Positions 39,786 through 56,212 of a stretch of 64,000 nt of DNA are shown piece by piece. Under the pieces are notes generated by a model that searched no databases, was not told the origin of the DNA, and was given only the letters and a program-made list of their open reading frames with translations. Within the stretch, counting starts at the first letter, position 1. Every line of letters begins with the position of its first letter. Position numbers and translations under genes: made by a program. Source of the stretch: an uncultured Dehalococcoidia bacterium (GTDB lineage: Bacteria > Chloroflexota > Dehalococcoidia > Lucifugimonadales > CAZENU01). The stretch covers positions 24,173 to 88,172 of the forward strand of contig CAZENU010000002.1 in the NCBI GenBank assembly GCA_964513735.1, read 5' to 3'.

Positions 39786-40430
39786 TCATTGCAGATGCGA
39801 TGCGTCGTTGAAGCGGCTGATCCGGAAGTACGTCCCGACCAGCCGGTGCTCGCCGTCCAAGGGCCAGCGCTCCTTGTCTATGCTGAAGTCGAACACCCCC
39901 GTGTTGTGCACAGTCGTGCCCCAGGTGCGATCGGTCCCCAGCAGCACGGCAAGGATGTGCTGCAAGATGCCACCGTGGGTAACCATGACCACCGTATCGC
40001 CGTCGTAGTGGCCGCCGAGAGCGCGCTCAACGACCCTTTCGGCGCGGGCCCGGCGGGCCCGGAGCGGCTCTGCTCCCTCAACGTCGGCAAGCTGCCTGGT
40101 CCAGGCGTGCTCCAGGTCTAGGTCCGGGTACTTGACGGCGATCTCCTCGTCGTTCAGCCCCGACAGGATGCCGATGTCGTACTCCATCAGGTCGTCCATG
40201 TAGGCGACCTCGACAGGCCAGCGGCGCGCCAGTACCGCGGCCGTCTGCCTCGTCCTCATCAAGGGGCTGGCGTAGACATGAGTCGGCTCGAAGCCGTCGC
40301 GGTGAAACTGCCGGGAGAGTTGCTCGGCCTGGGCCTCCCCGAGCCCGGACAGTGGGTGCTCGGAGTGCCCCTGATAGCGTCCCTCGGCGTTGGCGGTCGA
40401 CTCGGCGTGGCGGACGAAAATAAGCTTCAT
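39786..40430 (-). CDS. histidine phosphatase family protein (phosphoglycerate-mutase-like)
   Basis: 214 aa from ATG 40430. It has the RHG-type motif LIFVRHAESTANAEGRYQG and a later THGG. Confidence 0.85.
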   Translation of the reverse strand: MKLIFVRHAESTANAEGRYQGHSEHPLSGLGEAQAEQLSRQFHRDGFEPTHVYASPLMRTRQTAAVLARRWPVEVAYMDDLMEYDIGILSGLNDEEIAVKYPDLDLEHAWTRQLADVEGAEPLRARRARAERVVERALGGHYDGDTVVMVTHGGILQHILAVLLGTDRTWGTTVHNTGVFDFSIDKERWPLDGEHRLVGTYFRISRFNDASHLQ

Positions 40431-40682
40431 TTGTCTGCACTCCACACGTTGGGATTTCGGATACAACTCTGGTGGTCTATTCTAGCGTCTTGGCAAGGGT
40501 GGCAGGTCACGTGTGGTCGCGCCTGCTCACGATGAGGTGGAGATGTATAATTCCGTGACCAGTCTGTCCGTTTATTGGTCAGTAGTTTTCAGCCACGCGC
40601 GGTCCAAATCTCTTATACTTATAGACAGTATGGACGAAAGCCGCTAGCCCGGTTTTCGAAACCCAGCAAAGAGAAGGGTGAG

Positions 40683-41813
40683 ATGGGAGATACCGTGGTC
40701 GGGCCGGGGGTAGCCGGGAGCCAGTCGACCTACAGGTCCGCAGGGGTCGATACGGCTGCTCAAGACGCCGCGTTGTCGTCTTTGGCGCAGCGGCTAAGGG
40801 GCACGTGGAGCAACCACGGCAGGCCAAGCCTCGACTTCGGTCACTATGCCAACATCATCACGATGGGTCCGGTCGGCGTCGCCATCTCCACGGACGGCAT
40901 CGGAACAAAGGCCCTTATCGCCCAACTCATGGACAAGTACGACACCGTTGGGATCGACTGTGTCGCCATGAACGTCAACGACGTTCTCTGCGTCGGCGCG
41001 GTGCCCCAGACGATGGTCGACTACATCGCCGTCGAGCGAATCGACCCCCGCGTTCTTACAGGGATCGGCAAGGGTCTTGCCGATGGTGCATCGCAGGCCG
41101 GCATCTCCATTATCGGCGGCGAGACCGCGCAGCTCCCGGAAGTCATCCGCGGAGAGAAAGATGGCGGCGGCTTCGATCTGGCGGGTACCTGCCTCGGTCT
41201 CGTGCGCCCCGAGGGGGCGATCACCGGCAGCCGGGTTGAGGCAGGTGACACGATCATTGGCTTGCGAAGCTCAGGGATACACAGCAACGGCCTGACTCTG
41301 GCGCGGGCTGCGTTCGGACTCACCTCTGCCAAGCCCTTGTCAGAACGGCGGCGGATCGCCGCTGAGTACTATACTGAGCTCGGGTCGATGTTGGGTGAAG
41401 AGCTGCTGAGGCCGACGCGCATCTACGTATCCGAGGTGTTGGCGCTTCTGGATGAGGGTGTTGACGTCAGGGGACTCGCCCACATGACCACCGACGGTTT
41501 CTTGAATCTCCCGCGGCTGGAGGCGGATGCCGGATACGTCATCGACGCTCTACCTGAACCTCATCCGATTTTCGCCATGATTCAGGACCTCGGCGATGTG
41601 TCGGATGCGGAGATGTACGAGGTCTTCAATATGGGGATCGGTATGTGCGTCATCGTTCCCGGCGGAGAGGCCGCGGCGGCGCTTGACGTCCTGGCGAAGC
41701 TCCAGCAAGAAGCGTCGGCCATCGGACACGTCGTCGCCGACGCCCAGAGGACCGTGGACATCACCCCGCGGCGGCTCCGGGGCCGGCGCCACGACGGACT
41801 CGCGTCCTACTAG
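40683..41813 (+). CDS. purM: phosphoribosylformylglycinamidine cyclo-ligase (AIR synthase)
   Basis: 376 aa from ATG 40683 with an AGAAGGGTGAG Shine-Dalgarno. Motifs: YRSAGVD, GTDGIGTK, DCVAMNVNDVLCVGA. Confidence 0.9.
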   Translation: MGDTVVGPGVAGSQSTYRSAGVDTAAQDAALSSLAQRLRGTWSNHGRPSLDFGHYANIITMGPVGVAISTDGIGTKALIAQLMDKYDTVGIDCVAMNVNDVLCVGAVPQTMVDYIAVERIDPRVLTGIGKGLADGASQAGISIIGGETAQLPEVIRGEKDGGGFDLAGTCLGLVRPEGAITGSRVEAGDTIIGLRSSGIHSNGLTLARAAFGLTSAKPLSERRRIAAEYYTELGSMLGEELLRPTRIYVSEVLALLDEGVDVRGLAHMTTDGFLNLPRLEADAGYVIDALPEPHPIFAMIQDLGDVSDAEMYEVFNMGIGMCVIVPGGEAAAALDVLAKLQQEASAIGHVVADAQRTVDITPRRLRGRRHDGLASY

Positions 41814-41818
41814 TCCCA

Positions 41819-42988
41819 TCACGGCGCTGCAGGCGCGATGTTGCCCTCGTCGTCGGCCTCGAGCAGAGCGAAGAAGTCGTAGCCGCGCCTCCTGACCTCG
41901 TCGCTCCCGCCCTGCCGCCGGTCCAGGATGCACAGCACCTTCACCACCTGGCTCCCCGCCTGCTCTACGGCATCGATTGCGTGGAGCAGGCTGCCCCCCG
42001 TGCTGCATGTGTCGTCCACCACCGCAACTCTGGTCCCGGGGGTCAGCCGTCCCTCGATCAGCCGCCCGGTACCGTGCTCCTTGGCCTTCGCCCTGACGAT
42101 CAGCGCCGAGATCGGATTGCCTTTGAGGTGGCTGACGGTGGCGATAGAGGCCACGATGGGGTCGGCACCAACCGAGGGACCGGCTATCGCCTGCGCGCCG
42201 CACCCTACAAGGACCGGATAGAACGCCGTCGCGACCCTGTAGGACCCTTCGGGGTCCAGCGTCACCAGACGCCCGTCGAAATAGTAGCTACTGGTGCCTC
42301 CGGAGGTCAGGGTGAACTCGCCGAACCGCAGCGCACCGATCTCGGTGGCCAACTCCAAGATTCCGGCAGCGGTCGAACCTGCCATGGTCGCGCTCCCTCC
42401 CTCCAGGTAGAGCCCGTGGTCGCGGATGTACTGCTCGACAGGCTCCGGCACGAGGTCGGCGATGGACAGCCCGTCGCCGGTCCGCCGCCTGACCTCTGTG
42501 CTGCTTACGTCCAGAAGCGGCCCACCGACCTGCCTCACGGCCTCCGACGCCCCCACCGCCGCCTCCTCCAGCGCGTCAAGGTCCAGGCCGGCCGCTCCAG
42601 GCCTCACGATCGCTACAGGGTCGCAGAGCTCGAGGACGCGTTCGGGCCGGTGCCATGCTCCGAGCTGGTTCAGCGCATCGGTGCCCACCAGCAGGAAGAG
42701 GATCCTGCCCGGCGCAAGCGCCTCCAGCGTGTCTACGGTATAGCTCGGCCCGGCTCGCCGAATCTCGACGTCGGACACGCTGAAACCGTCGTGAGGGCCG
42801 ACCGCCAGACGCACCATCTCAAGCCGCTGGGCCCCGGACGCCACCGGCGGCCGCGTTTTGAGTCGAGGTTGACCTGCCGGGACGAAGAGCACCTCGTCGA
42901 GCCCGACCGCCTCTTGTGCGATTCGTGCCGCGATGAGATGCCCAAGGTGGACCGGGTCGAAGGTGCCACCGAGCAGCCCGACCCTCAC
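41819..42988 (-). CDS. nadD/pyrE: fusion protein: nicotinate-nucleotide adenylyltransferase (NadD) N-domain + orotate phosphoribosyltransferase (PyrE) C-domain
   Basis: Residues 1-201 contain GGTFDPVHLGHL (the NadD HxGH motif). Residues 202-389 contain FGEFTLTSGGTSSYYFD and the PRPP loop VAVVDDTCSTGGS. No stop codon separates them. Confidence 0.85.
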   Translation of the reverse strand: MRVGLLGGTFDPVHLGHLIAARIAQEAVGLDEVLFVPAGQPRLKTRPPVASGAQRLEMVRLAVGPHDGFSVSDVEIRRAGPSYTVDTLEALAPGRILFLLVGTDALNQLGAWHRPERVLELCDPVAIVRPGAAGLDLDALEEAAVGASEAVRQVGGPLLDVSSTEVRRRTGDGLSIADLVPEPVEQYIRDHGLYLEGGSATMAGSTAAGILELATEIGALRFGEFTLTSGGTSSYYFDGRLVTLDPEGSYRVATAFYPVLVGCGAQAIAGPSVGADPIVASIATVSHLKGNPISALIVRAKAKEHGTGRLIEGRLTPGTRVAVVDDTCSTGGSLLHAIDAVEQAGSQVVKVLCILDRRQGGSDEVRRRGYDFFALLEADDEGNIAPAAP

Positions 42989-42989
42989 C

Positions 42990-44249
42990 CTATTCCCATT
43001 CCAGCTCAGTCTTGCCTATCTTCACCCTGTCCCCAGCCCTAGCGCCCGCCTTCTCCAAGGCCGAAACCACGCCCAGCCTTCTAAGCTGCTCCATGAGCTG
43101 GGTCTGAGCGTGCCAGTCGCTTGAGTCGACCATTGCAGCGATCCTCTCAGCCGAGCGCAGGGCGACGACGTATACTCCCTCGATCCTGCTCACCTCAACG
43201 CCCCGGTCTACCGGCCTGGGGCGAAGCACGGGGATCCCATCCCCCTCCGGCGCCTTGGCCGCTTCCTCCCGAGCGGACGCCAGCGTCCCGGCCACATCGT
43301 CCAGCAGGCCGTCCAGCCCTCGCCTGGCAAGTGCCGAGATGCAGTGCACCCTGTGCCCGCCGAGCTTCGGCCTCAGGACGTCGCTCTTCTCCTCTACTCC
43401 TTCAAGGTCGGCTTTGTTGACAGCAACGATCTCGGGCTTAGTGGAGAGGCTCTCATTGAACATCCCTATCTCAGAGCGTATCCGCAGGTACTCGCCAAGG
43501 CTGTCATCCTGTTCACCGTCGATAAGGTGGATGAGCACCTTGGTCCTCTGGATGTGCCTGAGGAAGTCGTGCCCGAGGCCCGCGCCCGTATGGGCCCCCT
43601 CTATCAGCCCTGGGATGTCGACCATCACGAAGCTCTCGTATCCGATCTCCACAGTGCCGAGGGCGGGCTCTATTGTCGTGAACGGGTAGCCAGCCACCTT
43701 TGGGCTCGCCCCACTAACGGCGGCCAGCAGGCTAGACTTCCCTGCATTGGGCGCGCCCACGATCCCAACGTCCGCCAGGAGCTTCAGCTCCAACCGCAGT
43801 GTCAGACTCTCTCCTGGATCGCCCCCTTCGGCAAGCACCGGGTATCGGTTCGTAGGTGAGGTGAAGCGGGTATTCCCTCTACCTCCACGCCCTCCGCGTG
43901 CGATCACTATCCGCACCCCATCCTCCCAGAGGTCAGCTACTCGTTGCCCTTCGCCGTTGTTGCTCCAGACCTCCGTGCCGACGGGCACCTCTATCTCAAG
44001 GTGCGCCCCCCGCGCGCCATGGCGCTTCTTCCCCGATCCATGGCCCCCGTTCTCTGCCGTGAATAGCCGTCTGTAGCGGAACTCACTTAGTGTACTTATC
44101 CCGCCCGATGAGCGCATAACCACCGACCCGCCCTCACCACCATCCCCACCATCCGGTCCTCCACGAGGGACATACTTCTCCCGCCGGCCACTGACACTTC
44201 CGTTGCCCCCATTTCCACTGGTGACTTGGATAGTTGCTTGATCTATCAT
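42990..44249 (-). CDS. obg: GTPase Obg/CgtA
   Basis: Gly-rich Obg fold (GGPDGGDGGEGG), G-domain GAPNAGKSS and DIPGLIEGA, and a C-terminal OCT/TGS-like domain. The homologous start is ATG 44249 (MIDQATIQV); the ORF maximum is 44270. Confidence 0.9.
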   Translation of the reverse strand: MIDQATIQVTSGNGGNGSVSGRREKYVPRGGPDGGDGGEGGSVVMRSSGGISTLSEFRYRRLFTAENGGHGSGKKRHGARGAHLEIEVPVGTEVWSNNGEGQRVADLWEDGVRIVIARGGRGGRGNTRFTSPTNRYPVLAEGGDPGESLTLRLELKLLADVGIVGAPNAGKSSLLAAVSGASPKVAGYPFTTIEPALGTVEIGYESFVMVDIPGLIEGAHTGAGLGHDFLRHIQRTKVLIHLIDGEQDDSLGEYLRIRSEIGMFNESLSTKPEIVAVNKADLEGVEEKSDVLRPKLGGHRVHCISALARRGLDGLLDDVAGTLASAREEAAKAPEGDGIPVLRPRPVDRGVEVSRIEGVYVVALRSAERIAAMVDSSDWHAQTQLMEQLRRLGVVSALEKAGARAGDRVKIGKTELEWE

Positions 44250-44414
44250 TTTGAAGAGTATAACAGCCATCTATAATAAGGCTGGGGATCTTATGGATAT
44301 CTGGTCTCCAGGGCTTCGTGGACTGGAGGACGATGGTTCATAGGGAGGGGATTCTTATGGGCAACAAGCGGTGCGAAGGTGGGTAATGTTGGGAGGGCGG
44401 AGTTAAGGGAATAG

Positions 44415-44464
44415 TTTTCCACAATGGACCGGAGTTGTCCACCTACGGCGGCGAGTTATCCACT
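44415..44464 (+). promoter_or_regulatory. cluster of three co-oriented DnaA-box-like 9-mers (candidate oriC element)
   Basis: TTTTCCACA at 44415-23, TTGTCCACC at 44435-43 and TTATCCACT at 44456-64. Each is preceded by AG, the spacing is 20 and 21 bp, and the cluster lies between the dnaA stop and obg. Confidence 0.5.
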
Positions 44465-44498
44465 GTGCTGGGCCGAAGCTCGCAGCCTGGGAAGAGAG

Positions 44499-45881
44499 CT
44501 ATTTGGCGAGAGCCTCGCGGATATTGATTACGTCCCTGCGGAGGTCCGCATCGGCGTTGATACGGCTCGATATTCGGACGCAGGCGTGCATAACGGTGGT
44601 GTGGTCCTTGCCGCCCAGGACCGCGCCGGCCGACTTCAGGGTGAGATTGGCATCTTCGCGGAGGAGGTACATGGCGACCTGCCTGGCGAGAGCGGTCTCT
44701 TTGTCTCGTCTTCTGCCCTTGAGCACCTCAACGTCAATGGAGAAGTACGAGCATACTGCGTCGAGGATCCGCTGGTCGGACACTTTATGCCGGCGGGAGG
44801 TTTTCAGGGAGTCGGCGATGGCGCGCTTGACCAGATCTACGGAGATCGGGCGTTCGGTGAGCTGCGCGTAGGCAACGATCCTGTTCAGGTTGCCCTCCAG
44901 CTCGCGGACGTTCTTGTGGACCCGCTCTGCCAGGAAGTCCAGCACGTCGTCTGGGAACTGCCGTCCGGTTCCGGCAGCCTTTGCGCGCAGGATGTCCATG
45001 CGCATCTCCAGGTCCGGGGTCTGGATGTCGACGACCAGGCCTGCGGCTAGTCTGGAGCTGACGCGGTCCTCGAGCAGGGTCAGGTTGGACACTGGCCGGT
45101 CGCTGGTGATGACCACCTGCCTGCCGGCCAGGTGGAGCGAGTTGAATGTGTGGAAGAAGCCCTCCTGGGTCTGCTCCTTCCCGATGATGAACTGGATGTC
45201 GTCCAGCAGAAGGACGTCTGCGCTGCGATATCGCGCACGGAAGTCCTCGGTCTTGCCCTCGCGAATAGCCTTGATGTACTGGTTGGTGAACTCCTCGGTA
45301 GTTGCGTAGATCGGGGACAGACCGCGAGATGCCAGCGTGTGTCCGATGGCGTGGAGCAGGTGGGTCTTCCCCAGGCCGACCCCAGAGTAGATGAACAGGG
45401 GGTTGTAGACGCTGCCCGGGCTGTCCGACACCGCAGAGGCGGCCGCGTGGGCCAACTCGTTTGACCGGCCAATGATGAAGGCCTCGAATGTGTAGCGGGG
45501 ATTGAGCACCGCGGCAAAGGGTGCCGGTTCCCGTGAGGGTATGGAGCCGCTCGCCTTCGCGGCACCGCTGGACGTTGCGCCGTTGTGGCTGCCGCCGCCG
45601 CGGGCTCCCTCGGCGGCCCTGTTCGAAGAGATCACCGTGAAGCGTACGGCCACCCCTTTGGCGACGACCCGCTCCACCGACTGGGAGATGAGCGAGTACA
45701 TTCGTTGTTCGAGCATCTCGGCCACGAAGGTGTTGGGTGCGCCGATCACGAACTCGCCATCGCCATAAGCGATGCCGGTAGTGTCGCGGAGCCACGTCTC
45801 ATAGCTTGGACGGGTTACGCGCAACTGGAGGTCGCCGAGGACCGCCTGCCAGACATCTCCAGCTTGTCGATTATTCTCCAT
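44499..45881 (-). CDS. dnaA: chromosomal replication initiator protein DnaA
   Basis: 460 aa. AAA+ Walker A GVGLGKTHLL, Walker B LLLDDIQF and a domain IV HTH (KDHTTVMHA). Confidence 0.95.
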   Translation of the reverse strand: MENNRQAGDVWQAVLGDLQLRVTRPSYETWLRDTTGIAYGDGEFVIGAPNTFVAEMLEQRMYSLISQSVERVVAKGVAVRFTVISSNRAAEGARGGGSHNGATSSGAAKASGSIPSREPAPFAAVLNPRYTFEAFIIGRSNELAHAAASAVSDSPGSVYNPLFIYSGVGLGKTHLLHAIGHTLASRGLSPIYATTEEFTNQYIKAIREGKTEDFRARYRSADVLLLDDIQFIIGKEQTQEGFFHTFNSLHLAGRQVVITSDRPVSNLTLLEDRVSSRLAAGLVVDIQTPDLEMRMDILRAKAAGTGRQFPDDVLDFLAERVHKNVRELEGNLNRIVAYAQLTERPISVDLVKRAIADSLKTSRRHKVSDQRILDAVCSYFSIDVEVLKGRRRDKETALARQVAMYLLREDANLTLKSAGAVLGGKDHTTVMHACVRISSRINADADLRRDVINIREALAK

Positions 45882-46653: not shown

Positions 46654-49955
<3,302 letters not shown>

Positions 49956-49956
<1 letters not shown>

Positions 49957-50792
49957 CAATTGGTCCTCTGAAGGCCGGTCGTCGTGGGATGTACCACCTG
50001 CGTCGGACCATCCAGAATTACCAAGCTACCCAGCAGATCGCGAGGGTGACTATCAAGCATGTCCCATACGCGTTGAGGAGCCGTCTCGTAAGCCCCGGGC
50101 AAAGTCCCTGCCTCTTGTCTCGCAGAACTCCCGCCAGGACCCAACCACCTTCCTGTGGATATAATTAACCTGCACTTCAGGTCGTAGGTCTTGCGGAATT
50201 CTCGGAGTTGCCCTGGTTTGTTGTCCACTGCGCCCCACACAGCGGCCTGTATCTTTGGTGAGGCTTCCGTCCCGCTGAACAGTACATGAGTAGCACTAAG
50301 GTCAAATGGCTTCACGGTCTTTCCGTTCGAACGCGGAACTCCTAGGCGGGCAACCTCTGCGCCGTATCGCTCGCCGAGCACCTTATCGAGGAAGTCAACG
50401 GTCTTCGTGGAGCTTTCCCTAAGCTTTAGTACGTCTCTGAACCCGATCTTCCTGGGGCAGGCATAGGCCTCAACTTCCGTCAGGAAGTCCAGGGCCTTGC
50501 TGCTTACGGTGTCCGTGTCCCCCGCAGGGGTCTCCTTGAAGATGCCTGCGAAGTATTGACAATTCGTCTTGCTTTCACTCAATACTCGCTCCAACTTGTC
50601 AACAACCTCTCGCGAGGCTTCGTCTGACATGATGCCGCGTAGGATATTCTGCCGTAAGACTGGTCTCTTAAAGCCTGGCTTAATCCACTTGCCCAGGCAG
50701 TGCCTGATATGTAGATTTGACTGAAGCCTGGTTCGGGCTAGCCGAAGTTCGCCCTCTGAGAGAGGCTCGCCTAGTTGTGCGACATCAACCAT
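49956..50792 (-). CDS. orphan hypothetical protein in a low-GC insert
   Basis: 278 aa from ATG 50792 (the ORF maximum is 50912). No family was recognised. Local G+C is about 50% versus about 70% in the flanks, by hand counts. Confidence 0.5.
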
Positions 50793-50812
50793 TTCACCAT
50801 GATGATCGGCTT

Positions 50813-51508
50813 TCACAGGATCTCCAGCAGCTCGGATAGGGCTGAGATCTGGAAGTCGGGCTGGTGCTCGCCGTCGGCCGTGGCGCCGTCGCGGTTGACC
50901 CAGACAACCCAAGCGCCGACGCCTTTGGCGCCGCCCACGTCGCTGCGCAGCGAGTCTCCCACGTGCAGCAGCTCGTGGGGCTGGCAGCCCGCCTCGTGTA
51001 TGGCGATCTGGAACAGGCGTGGGTCGGGCTTGTTGATGCCTCCGTGGTCCTGGGCGTACACGCCGAAGGAGAACAGGTGCCCCAGGCCGAAGCGCTCGGG
51101 GTAGCTGTTGCCGTTGGATAATATGCCGAGGCGATATCTCGGCGCCAGGGCTTCCAGGGCCGGGCGCACGTCGGCGAACGGTCGCGACGGCGCCCAGCGG
51201 TGCTCGAAGTAGACGTCGCTGAGCCGCTCCGCCAGGGCGTCGTCGGGCCTGCCGACGTCGATCAGCGCCTGCCTGAACGACGCTTTCCTGATCTCGACCA
51301 GGTCGGGGGTGACGTCGCGCATCTTGATGCGGACGCGGTCCCTCGTCTCGACCATTTTGTCGACGTCCAGTATGGCGGCCGCCTCGGGGTCGTGCCTCTC
51401 AAGCTCCCGCAGCGCCTTCTGCAGGGAGCCGCGCATCATCCCGTGGAAGTCCCACAGGGTGCCGTCCACGTCCAGGGTGATGGACTTGATGCCGGTGAGA
51501 CGGGTCAT
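50813..51508 (-). CDS. HAD-superfamily hydrolase, subfamily IA
   Basis: Motif I is LDVDGTLWD, motif II is ILSNG and motif III/IV is KPDPRLF ... HVGDSLRSDVGGAKGVG. Confidence 0.85.
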   Translation of the reverse strand: MTRLTGIKSITLDVDGTLWDFHGMMRGSLQKALRELERHDPEAAAILDVDKMVETRDRVRIKMRDVTPDLVEIRKASFRQALIDVGRPDDALAERLSDVYFEHRWAPSRPFADVRPALEALAPRYRLGILSNGNSYPERFGLGHLFSFGVYAQDHGGINKPDPRLFQIAIHEAGCQPHELLHVGDSLRSDVGGAKGVGAWVVWVNRDGATADGEHQPDFQISALSELLEIL

Positions 51509-51573
51509 GAGGCCGGCGAGTACAGCCGGAGGTCTGTAACACGCGCGAACTGTGGTATATCGGTATCAGCCAT
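51505..51573 (-). pseudogene. 22-codon remnant ORF in the position of a vapC partner (tentative)
   Basis: It encodes MADTDIPQFARVTDLRLYSPAS. It starts in a TAATG overlap with the corrected vapB stop and ends in an ATGA overlap with the HAD start. Confidence 0.3.
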
Positions 51574-51789
51574 TACCACCGGAGCTTTTCCTGTTCTTCC
51601 ATCTCCAATCGCTCCATCTCGCCAAGGTCGACGTCGAGGTTCCCCGCCAACGCTCGCAGCTCCGCTATCTTCCGAATACGAACGAACTCCCGCAGCGCGG
51701 GTAGTGACCGCCCCGCTCTTGGTCTTCTCGCCGATCAGCCGCACTGCGTCCGCCATCAGCTTCTCGTCGATGTTCAGCGTGGCGCGCAT
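51573..51789 (-). pseudogene. vapB: VapB-type (DUF2191-like, RHH) antitoxin with a 1-nt frameshift
   Basis: MRATLNIDEKLMADAVRLIGEKTKSGAV is followed by junk in frame. Shifting one base at about 51700-51705 restores PALREFVRIRKIAELRALAGNLDVDLGEMERLEMEEQEKLRW and a stop at 51573-75. Confidence 0.6.
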
Positions 51790-51804
51790 GACGACGCCTC
51801 GTTG

Positions 51805-52905
<1,101 letters not shown>

Positions 52906-52954
52906 ATGCGGCGCCAATTGGAGAGATGTCTAGCGCCCCAGCGTCCTGGGCGGG

Positions 52955-54408: not shown

Positions 54409-55419
54409 CTAGGTCCTTCCGTGGGGCATGAGCCCGTAGAGCAGCGCCATACGAACGGCCACGCCGTTGGTCACCTGCTCTTCGATGACCGACCGGGCCC
54501 CGTGGGCGACCTCGGTGTCGATCTCGATGCCCTCGTTCATCGGCCCGGGGTGCATCACGATGACGTCGGGGCTGGCGAGCCTGAGGCGGTCCGCCGTGAT
54601 CCCGTACATCCGCGAGTACTCGCGGACGGTGGGTAGATGGCCGGCCTGCTGGCGCTCGCGCTGTATCCGGAGCGCCATCACGACGTCGGCACCCTCCAGG
54701 GCGCGCTCGACGCTGGTCTCCGTCTCTATGGAGGCGAAGGGGTGCCCTTCGGGCACTCTGGAACCCCCGATGAAGGCCGGCGGCAGCAGCGTAGGGGGGG
54801 CACAGATGACCACGCTGGCGCCCATCCTGGTCAGCCCCCACAGGTTAGACCGCGCCACACGGCCGTACAGGATGTCGCCCACGATGGCGACTCTGACGCC
54901 CTCGATGCGGCCGAGGCGCGTCTGGATGGTGTACAAGTCGAGTAGCGCCTGCGTCGGGTGGGCGTGGCCGCCGTCGCCGGCGTTGATGACGCCGGCGTCG
55001 AGGTTGCGCGCGAGGAAGTACGGCGCCCCCGAGTGTGGATGGCGCATCACGAGCAGGTCGGCGTTCATCGCCTGCAGGGTCAGCGCAGTGTTGTAGAGCG
55101 ACTCGCCCTTCTCGGCGCTGCTGCCGGTGCCGGTCACGTTGATCACGTCGGCGCTGAGGGTCTTGGCGGCGTGCTCGAAGGACACCCTGGTCCGGGTGCT
55201 GGGCTCCAGGAACAGGGTGACGATCGACTTGCCCCTGAGCGCGGGCACCTTCTTGATGTCCCGCCCGAGGACCTCCTTCATGACCGAGGAGTTCTGCATG
55301 ACCTCCTCGATCTCCTCACGGCTGAAGTCGTCAAGGTCCAGGACGTGCCGGCGGCGGGGGCGATGTGTGTCCGGTGCCTGCGCGGCAGCCTCACCTTCTC
55401 GAGCGGACCGGGAGGTCAC
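54409..55419 (-). CDS. pyrB: aspartate carbamoyltransferase catalytic subunit
   Basis: Motifs STRTR, HPTQ and the HPGPMN region are present. The start is GTG within a GTGA overlap with the pyrR stop. There is an N-terminal extension of about 22 aa. Confidence 0.9.
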
Positions 55420-55955
55420 TGCTGCCTCCTCGAGATGACGACCTCGTCTGAGCCGTCTATCTCCTTGACCCGGACCAGCACCTCCTCGTCGTGGGAGGTG
55501 GGGACGTTCTTGCCGACGTAGTCCGCCCTGATGGGCAGCTCTCGATGGCCGCGATCGATCAGCACAGCAAGCTGGATCTGCCTAGGCCGCCCGATGTCGG
55601 TCAGGGCGTCCATCGCTGCGCGGATGGTCCTGCCCGTGAACAGGACGTCGTCGACCAGCACGACTAGGCGCCCCTCGACGCTGTCGGGGATGTAGGTTGG
55701 GCGCATGAAGGACCGAATGCCGCCGGAGAAGTCGTCCCGATACAGCCCGATGTCCAGGGCGCCCACCGGAGGCCTGGTATCCTCGAACTCCTCGATCCAT
55801 GTGGCCAGCCGATGCGCCAGCGGGACGCCACGGGTATGTAGGCCCACGAGCACGATCTCGCCGGCGCCGCCGTTGCGCTCGAGGACCTCGTGGGCGATGC
55901 GTGACAGAGCACGCCGTATCTCTTCCGCCGACAGTATGGGTCTTGCCTCGGCGAT
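55416..55955 (-). CDS. pyrR: bifunctional pyrimidine operon attenuation regulator / uracil phosphoribosyltransferase PyrR
   Basis: 179 aa with the PRTase loop [13 protein letters not shown]. The start is placed at an in-frame ATC 7 nt after an AAGGGAGG Shine-Dalgarno and downstream of the leader terminator. The nearest canonical in-frame start (GTG 55997) lies inside the terminator stem. Confidence 0.8.
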
Positions 55956-55979
55956 CTCGGAGCCTCCCTTCCGGTGCGC

Positions 55980-56011
55980 AAAAAAGCCTCTTGCCACTGC
56001 TGGCAAGAGGC
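55980..56011 (-). terminator. intrinsic terminator of the pyr leader (attenuator)
   Basis: The minus strand reads gcctcttgcca-gcag-tggcaagaggc followed by tttttt. This is an 11-bp perfect stem. Confidence 0.75.
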
Positions 56012-56067
56012 CGGCACAGGTTCCGCGCAGGTCTCGTGGCCACGCTTGACCCAGGAGGGGCACCTTG

Positions 56068-56088
56068 CCAGCCTCACAGGACTGGATT
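56068..56088 (-). promoter_or_regulatory. PyrR-binding-loop-like RNA motif in the pyr leader
   Basis: The minus strand reads AAUCCAGUCCUGUGAGGCUGG followed by CAAGG. It resembles the UCCAGAGAGGCU...AAGG PyrR binding loops of Bacillus-type pyr leaders. Confidence 0.55.
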
Positions 56089-56133
56089 AAAGGTTCGCTA
56101 CTGACGTTCTGCTCCGTATTGGACGTCCGTGAC

Positions 56134-56162
56134 ATTGTACCCAATACCGGGAGGCGTATCAA
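56134..56162 (-). promoter_or_regulatory. candidate sigma70-type promoter of the pyr operon (TTGATA-17-TACAAT)
   Basis: The minus strand reads ttgata cgcctcccggtattggg tacaat, about 170 nt upstream of the pyrR start. Confidence 0.5.
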
Positions 56163-56212
56163 CCGGTGGCCGGCAGACGGGCGCGATCTTGGGGCAGGCG
56201 CCATCATTTACC

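Follow-up and report, generated by a model that had tools for sequence, protein, structure and literature searches.

A fused nadD–pyrE reading frame in an uncultured Dehalococcoidia bacterium carries the putative former pyrE ribosome-binding site and start codon at its domain junction

Both of the enzymes considered here, NadD and PyrE, are known as parts of larger proteins: in UMP synthases of the PyrE–PyrF type (NF004034/PRK05500; PDB 3qw4) PyrE is joined to a second catalytic domain, and in the NadD–HD-domain proteins (NF005519/PRK07152) NadD likewise carries a second domain. A different kind of precedent is given by the Escherichia coli genes infB (IF2 alpha and beta), cheA (long and short forms) and clpB (93 and 79 kDa), from each of which two products are made by way of an internal Shine–Dalgarno (SD) sequence and start codon. 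We have analysed a 64,000-nucleotide (nt) stretch of DNA from an uncultured Dehalococcoidia bacterium (assembly GCA_964513735.1, contig CAZENU010000002.1, positions 24,173 to 88,172 of the forward strand; hereafter the window) in which a single open reading frame (ORF) on the minus strand, nadD::pyrE at 41819–42988, encodes NadD followed by PyrE, with an SD-like sequence and an in-frame ATG where the two domains meet. Against each of the two described kinds of fusion protein this ORF matches the shared domain only. The fused ORF and its junction signal had been noticed in a sequence-only reading of the window, and this observation is confirmed by the translation, by family matches and by the junction sequence at 42404–42383.

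The ORF starts with GTG at 42988–42986 and comprises 389 amino acids (aa) and a stop codon, with the Pfam domains CTP_transf_like and Pribosyltran. Residues 2–195 (42404–42985) match positions 7–199 of the 201 in the NCBIfam NadD model NF000840 at 176.2 bits (cut-off 150), and TIGR00482 is matched at 150 bits (cut-off 112.45). As in NadD proteins of known structure (PDB 5db4, 4ymi and 1kam, the first two being the nearest PDB relatives of this half), the match covers the full model and includes an (H/T)xGH-type motif (GGTFDPVHLGH, aa 7–17) and an SxTxxR-type motif (VSSTEVR, aa 161–167); G7, G8, P12, H14, H17 and R167 are invariant across 121 homologues. Unlike NadD, however, the chain has no stop after its ...HGLY C-terminus and runs in frame into PyrE. 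That second half matches TIGR00336 at 142.7 bits (cut-off 106.8; aa 212–380, model positions 1–172 of 173; 41849–42355), and residues 202–389 align end to end with short-type PyrE as represented by the orotate phosphoribosyltransferases of Mycobacterium tuberculosis (5hkf and 5hkl, its nearest PDB relatives) and Corynebacterium diphtheriae (2p1z). The phosphoribosyl pyrophosphate (PRPP)-binding motif VAVVDDTCSTGGS is found at aa 321–333 and the catalytic loop RAKAKEHGTG at aa 299–308, both within segments spanned by the 5hkf alignment; D325, D326, R299 and G306 are invariant in the 121 homologues and H305 is nearly so. Thus the claim that a complete NadD and a complete PyrE occupy one 389-codon frame holds, all the motifs quoted for it being present in the translation and the curated cut-offs being passed. 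Each half appears by sequence to be an ordinary member of its own enzyme family, and we infer that both are catalytically active. AlphaFold, run on a 121-sequence alignment, gave a mean predicted local distance difference test score (pLDDT) of 92.5 and a predicted template modelling score of 0.59; pLDDT was mostly above 90 in the NadD domain and fell below 50 only at residues 198–203, so that the protein is modelled as two well-folded domains joined by a short flexible tether. No solved structure holding both domains was present among the PDB matches.

The tether is a six-residue linker, E196–T201 (EGGSAT; 42386–42403, minus strand), predicted to be flexible, and the junction-spanning peptide of the fusion is DHGLYLEGGSATMAGSTAAGILELATEIGALR. 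On the minus strand the junction codons read CTG GAG GGA GGG AGC GCG ACC ATG. The purine run GGAGGGAGGGAG (42393–42404), which resembles an SD sequence and also codes for the end of L195 and for E-G-G-S, is separated by a 7-nt spacer (42392–42386) from the ATG of M202 (42385–42383), the candidate internal start. From M202 to the stop codon an internal ORF (41819–42385, minus strand) encodes 188 aa, a complete short-type PyrE; the predicted N-terminus of a free enzyme begun there is (M)AGSTAAGILELATEIGALR. A difference from stand-alone short-type PyrE is that what resembles the pyrE start and SD sequence is now linker coding sequence within a larger ORF.

Two alternatives concern the fusion itself. 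An assembly or sequencing error involving a deleted stop codon or a frameshift could mimic a fusion, since unfused relatives lie one base or a 1-nt shift away from it, and the sequence-only reading had raised such an error at the junction as a point to be checked. It is now excluded: the ORF recurs, without a single difference over its 1170 nt, in five other assemblies, each built separately and together representing different samples and pipelines; the 90% cluster to which the window protein belongs contains 10 fused members, its single shorter call corresponding to the internal ORF; and more distant relatives are also fused, in JGI-hosted and ENA-hosted assemblies made by different pipelines. 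The identical independent assemblies and the fused relatives effectively refute an artefact, to which we attach almost no credence. The other alternative denies that the C-terminal phosphoribosyltransferase domain is PyrE and gives it instead a role related to NAD, for example making nicotinate mononucleotide for NadD. Fusion partners often belong to one pathway, and the loop found here, RAKAKEHG, differs from RKEAKxHG, the consensus of the fused family. Against this, the TIGR00336 match is full-length and above the cut-off, the structures solved for its nearest relatives are those of orotate phosphoribosyltransferases, the domain has the PRPP motif together with K303, H305 and G306 of the loop, the unfused orthologues are ordinary stand-alone pyrE genes, and the pyr operon of the window contains no other pyrE. 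A non-PyrE identity is thus very improbable, and we regard it as ruled out by curated cut-offs, motifs and orthology.

Nor is the architecture confined to this genome. At least 120 clusters of full-length fused proteins, of 387–438 aa and with identity down to 47%, were recovered by a protein search, and the fused homologues number at least 136 in total, every named one of which is from Dehalococcoidia/SAR202. Among 121 fused homologues the linker is 10–51 aa long and variable in sequence. The public names that we met for fused proteins were 'nicotinate-nucleotide adenylyltransferase' or 'hypothetical protein'. It had been suggested that this domain combination is undescribed, and we indeed found no description of a NadD–PyrE fusion in the literature, in a search part of which was swamped by matches to 'pyrene'; however, the combination is common in Dehalococcoidia metagenomes and so is not rare. 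It is best described as an architecture that is common within one uncultured class and uncharacterised.

The arrangement of the two genes in relatives points to the origin of the fusion. When a PyrE-domain profile was run against species representatives, each species being represented by one genome, it picked up 75 loci from Chloroflexota (Dehalococcoidia, SAR202) and five from other phyla. Of the Chloroflexota loci, 65 have a separate pyrE preceded, in most cases immediately, by nadD, eight have the two genes fused, and two have no nadD within 3 kb upstream of pyrE; at the loci from Acidobacteriota, Aminicenantes and Armatimonadota pyrE stands alone. In a minority of loci (L004, L015, L016, L033, L040 and L042) nadD and pyrE share orientation but are 400–870 nt apart, with something inserted between them. 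Of the 76 unfused pairs, from GTDB and metagenome loci, all of whose junctions were read, 21 showed a 4-nt overlap (ATGA, GTGA or TTGA), eight a larger overlap and 22 a gap of 30 nt or less. In 14 of the 76 the two genes are in the same frame, some being split by one stop codon; the pair at L070, for example, reads ATT TGA GGA GGG CGC ATG and is one point mutation short of fusion. The pyrE SD sequence (GGAGG or GAAGGGAGG) often lies inside the last nadD codons, as in AGG GAG GCC GTG TGA (L085), GAA GGG AGG ACG GCG AGT TGA (L086) and GAA GGA GGG GCA TGA (L072, encoding LYIEGGA*). Because unfused junctions carry the SD sequence just before the pyrE start, the Gly-Gly of the linker can be read as that SD sequence translated in frame.

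The position of M202 fits the same origin. Aligned with the solved M. tuberculosis PyrE chain, the internal ORF (MAGSTAAGILELA...) matches from its very first residue the stretch MAGPDRAELAELV... that begins at residue 11, and both sequences open with MAG; we take residue 11 of that chain to be the native Met1 behind a tag, the tag itself being an assumption. Since the junction site thus lies at the pyrE start both of unfused relatives and of the solved M. tuberculosis enzyme, its placement reflects homology, not chance. The comparison shows, at the level of sequence, that the fusion descends from an adjacent gene pair, and it is essentially certain that the SD and ATG at the junction share ancestry with the start of pyrE in unfused relatives and are in that sense relic in origin, so that the earlier suggestion that they represent the original pyrE start is supported both by the unfused junctions and by the alignment of M202 with the presumed Met1. 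In a neighbour-joining tree of 210 NadD+PyrE sequences, analysed by Fitch parsimony, the root is unfused and at least 10 changes of state are required; the tree has no support values and is indicative only, but fusion and fission look recurrent in Dehalococcoidia.

We propose that neighbouring and often translationally coupled nadD and pyrE genes of Dehalococcoidia would have merged into a single reading frame, the linker DNA being the former intergenic or overlap region now read in frame. Ribosomes starting at the GTG at 42988, in coupling with obg, would produce the 389-aa protein; GGA GGG (Gly-Gly) would be the old pyrE SD sequence and the ATG at 42385 (M202) the old pyrE start; and in the lineage of the window this internal start would probably still be active, giving free 188-aa PyrE beside the fusion. 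Taken as a whole, a genuine bifunctional gene derived from merged nadD and pyrE, whose internal start is still used to give both fusion and free PyrE, is the reading that we favour, with some reserve. For the use of the internal site today, and hence a dual output of fusion and free 188-aa PyrE, the sequence features make a plausible case that we would judge to be roughly evenly balanced. More tentative, and in our estimate a little short of even, is the further idea that the SD sequence and start are actively maintained, two enzyme forms arising from one ORF and the fusion being kept reversible (a 'fusion with a safety net').

What favours present-day function is the strength of the signal and its persistence among close relatives. 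The junction SD has a predicted duplex energy with the anti-SD sequence of -12.1 kcal/mol and a functional 7-nt spacing to the ATG. By comparison, 26-codon control windows inside pyrE from 101 loci had a median energy of -3.7 kcal/mol, and the fractions reaching -6.2, -10 and -12 kcal/mol were 0.29, 0.056 and 0.003, respectively. Gene finders accept M202 as a start where the upstream sequence is absent: P0124, a 188-aa gene predicted in public data on an ENA contig of 1559 nt, begins exactly at the internal Met (MAGSTAAG...). In the neighbour-joining tree the window protein belongs to an all-fused clade of about 26 sequences, within which four-fold degenerate sites are nearly saturated between lineages, identity to the window being 0.44–0.49 for L162–166 and 0.36 for L167 where 0.375 is expected from composition. 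Six of the eight sampled lineages of this clade, as judged by eye, nevertheless carry, at one and the same place in the linker, an SD sequence followed by an ATG or GTG in frame (the window, L001, L162–167, L168 and L169), with energies of -6.2 to -12.5 kcal/mol. The junction reads GGA GGG AGC GCG ACC ATG in the window, GGA GGG xxx xxx GGx GTG in L162–164, GAA GGG AGC AGG GGC GTG in L165–166, GGA AGG GAC GCC ACC ATG in L167, AAG GAG GCT GGC ATG in L168 and AGG AAG GGA GAC AGT ATG in L169, so that the motif G[GA]A[GA]GG persists at the nucleotide level although the amino acids that it encodes vary (GG, EG, GR). The codons concerned are rare, GGA accounting for 11% of Gly codons and GGA-GGG for five of 174 Gly-Gly pairs in the genes of the window. 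Three junction haplotypes, SATM (the window), SVTM and SVTI, occur in the 90% cluster, and the ATG is lost only where Val already sits two codons upstream behind the same SD sequence; in the DNA of L001 this Val is encoded by GTG and the Ile by ATT, with an energy of -12.5 kcal/mol, GTG being presumed in the other Val haplotypes. These patterns suggest that selection may well be what has retained the internal start in the clade of the window.

The principal competing explanation accepts the same fusion and the same origin but holds that the SD and ATG are a decaying relic and that only the 389-aa protein is made; we consider it a real possibility, though the less likely one, and several observations weigh for it and against a functional internal start. 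Two lineages of the same clade have lost the start (L170, by ATG to ACG, and L171), and five of eight sampled genes from other fused clades lack either a start codon (L024, L029 and L032) or an SD sequence (L023 and L025). Even in the 90% cluster of the window four members have no ATG, with Ile in all of them and ATT where the DNA could be read (L001). The linkers of the 121 fused proteins are no richer in Met than the proteins overall (1.3% versus 1.4%), Met-bearing linkers number 30 where about 32 are expected, and the column of M202 is Met in only two; conservation of the start is clade-specific, not family-wide. Strong combinations of SD sequence and start also arise by chance inside genes: six of 823 internal in-frame ATG, GTG or TTG codons in window genes have an equally strong SD sequence (-12 kcal/mol or below), which means that the motif alone arises a handful of times per 64 kb. 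The messenger RNA at the junction is not open, its folding energy being -21.0 kcal/mol as against a coding background of -20.4 kcal/mol, and accepted starts in the window show less structure (-7.9 to -19.5 kcal/mol); this comparison, however, carries little weight, because the junction would in any case be unfolded by ribosomes engaged on nadD. Finally, the independent lineages are few and come from a tree without support values. On sequence grounds the internal start seems clearly dispensable, because lineages that lack the SD sequence or the start must rely on the fusion protein. What the relic explanation accommodates poorly is the retention of the SD sequence and start in most lineages of the clade despite the near-saturation of four-fold sites, the fact that conservation acts at the nucleotide and not the amino acid level and through rare codons, and the restriction of ATG loss to haplotypes in which a presumed GTG offers a start two codons upstream. 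A further explanation would also account for nucleotide-level conservation of a purine-rich motif exactly at the inter-domain linker: the SD-like run might be kept for another role, such as pairing with the anti-SD sequence in a pause that slows ribosomes so that the NadD domain can fold. That SD-like sequences pause ribosomes is a general but disputed idea, and a pause site would leave unexplained both the conserved in-frame ATG or GTG 5–10 nt downstream and the use of the same motif as an ordinary SD sequence in unfused relatives; we consider it improbable.

Whether or not free PyrE is produced, the fusion has practical consequences. As fused proteins are publicly named as NadD or as 'hypothetical protein', metabolic reconstructions of SAR202/Dehalococcoidia could mistakenly list pyrE, and de novo pyrimidine synthesis along with it, as absent. 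All stages of the process are also represented among these genomes, from a gap through a 4-nt overlap and a single in-frame stop codon to fusions that have kept the start and fusions that have lost it, and with so dense a series the mechanism and reversibility of gene fusion are directly testable. If internal initiation does occur, the locus would clearly exemplify selection on a ribosome-binding site that at the same time codes for a protein linker; and if the start does act as a safety net, this would explain the repeated flips between fused and split nadD and pyrE in Dehalococcoidia and would provide a natural series of gene fusion and fission in progress, with selection on a ribosome-binding site inside a protein linker.

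Directly upstream of the fusion gene is obg (42990–44270, minus strand), and because only 1 nt separates its TAG stop codon from the nadD GTG, the two genes are probably members of one operon with coupled translation. The order dnaA–obg–nadD::pyrE is common to the relatives inspected, in all of which nadD follows obg directly. On the other side purM (40575–41813, plus strand) converges on the fusion gene with 5 nt between the stop codons. The place after the fusion is taken in six relatives by a gene for a His_Phos_1 phosphatase that overlaps it by 4 nt; the corresponding gene of the window (39786–40466, minus strand) has been displaced by purM in a local rearrangement. At L169, the locus of the protein P0011, a 185-aa gene with a faint Pfam match to Y1 (IS200-like) transposases (L169:2033–2590) lies directly downstream of the fusion, in the slot occupied by the phosphatase gene in closer relatives. 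The spacer between dnaA (44499–45881, minus strand) and obg, at 44271–44498, contains two near-consensus DnaA boxes 41 nt apart (TTTTCCACA at 44415 and TTATCCACT at 44456), and cumulative GC skew reaches its minimum in the window at about 42–46 kb. DnaA boxes are not above chance across the window as a whole (seven versus 3.9 expected). The spacer region may be a replication origin.

The sequence-only reading had also stressed that pyrE is missing from the pyr operon of the window. It is indeed absent from this operon (pyrR-pyrB-pyrC-carA-(HAD)-(?)-carB), but the argument is weak: its absence says little because pyrD and pyrF are likewise absent. Between carA (51805–52917) and carB (46654–49959) there is a gap of about 1.8 kb (49956–51804, minus strand) that holds a gene resembling HAD-family hydrolases or nucleotidases (50813–51508) and a 318-aa ORF (49956–50912). 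The latter has no Pfam or NCBIfam match, the stop-to-stop frame that holds it has a low third-position GC content of 0.53, and it may not be a gene. A PyrR-binding attenuator (RF00515; 55978–56097, minus strand; 61 bits versus a cut-off of 54), the sole Rfam match in the window, lies upstream of pyrR-pyrB-pyrC-carA. The mechanically called pyrR ORF (55416–56207) runs across this attenuator and its PyrR match begins only at aa 86, the true start probably being near 55950.

When the locus is set beside the systems described at the outset, its distinctive features lie in the choice of partners and in the nature of the predicted short product. The partners in PyrE–PyrF and NadD–HD proteins belong to the same pathway or are regulatory, whereas NadD and PyrE belong to two different pathways. 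The sequence-only reading had remarked that the fusion physically links NAD and pyrimidine synthesis; the two reactions have no direct metabolic link, and the pairing mirrors the shared place of the two genes downstream of obg, not consecutive reactions. No new chemistry and no new kind of system is revealed, the fusion of adjacent genes being of a known kind for which a well-documented comparative series is available here. The closest counterparts are the unfused Dehalococcoidia/SAR202 pairs (L002–L076 and L082–L094), which have the same gene order, SD motif and pyrE N-terminus and whose junctions can be superimposed on that of the window, the fusion differing in that it has no separating stop codon or frame offset. 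With infB, cheA and clpB the locus shares, as a candidate, an in-frame SD sequence and start inside a longer ORF. However, the short product of those genes is a truncated isoform, whereas the short product predicted here would be a complete and ancestrally independent enzyme.

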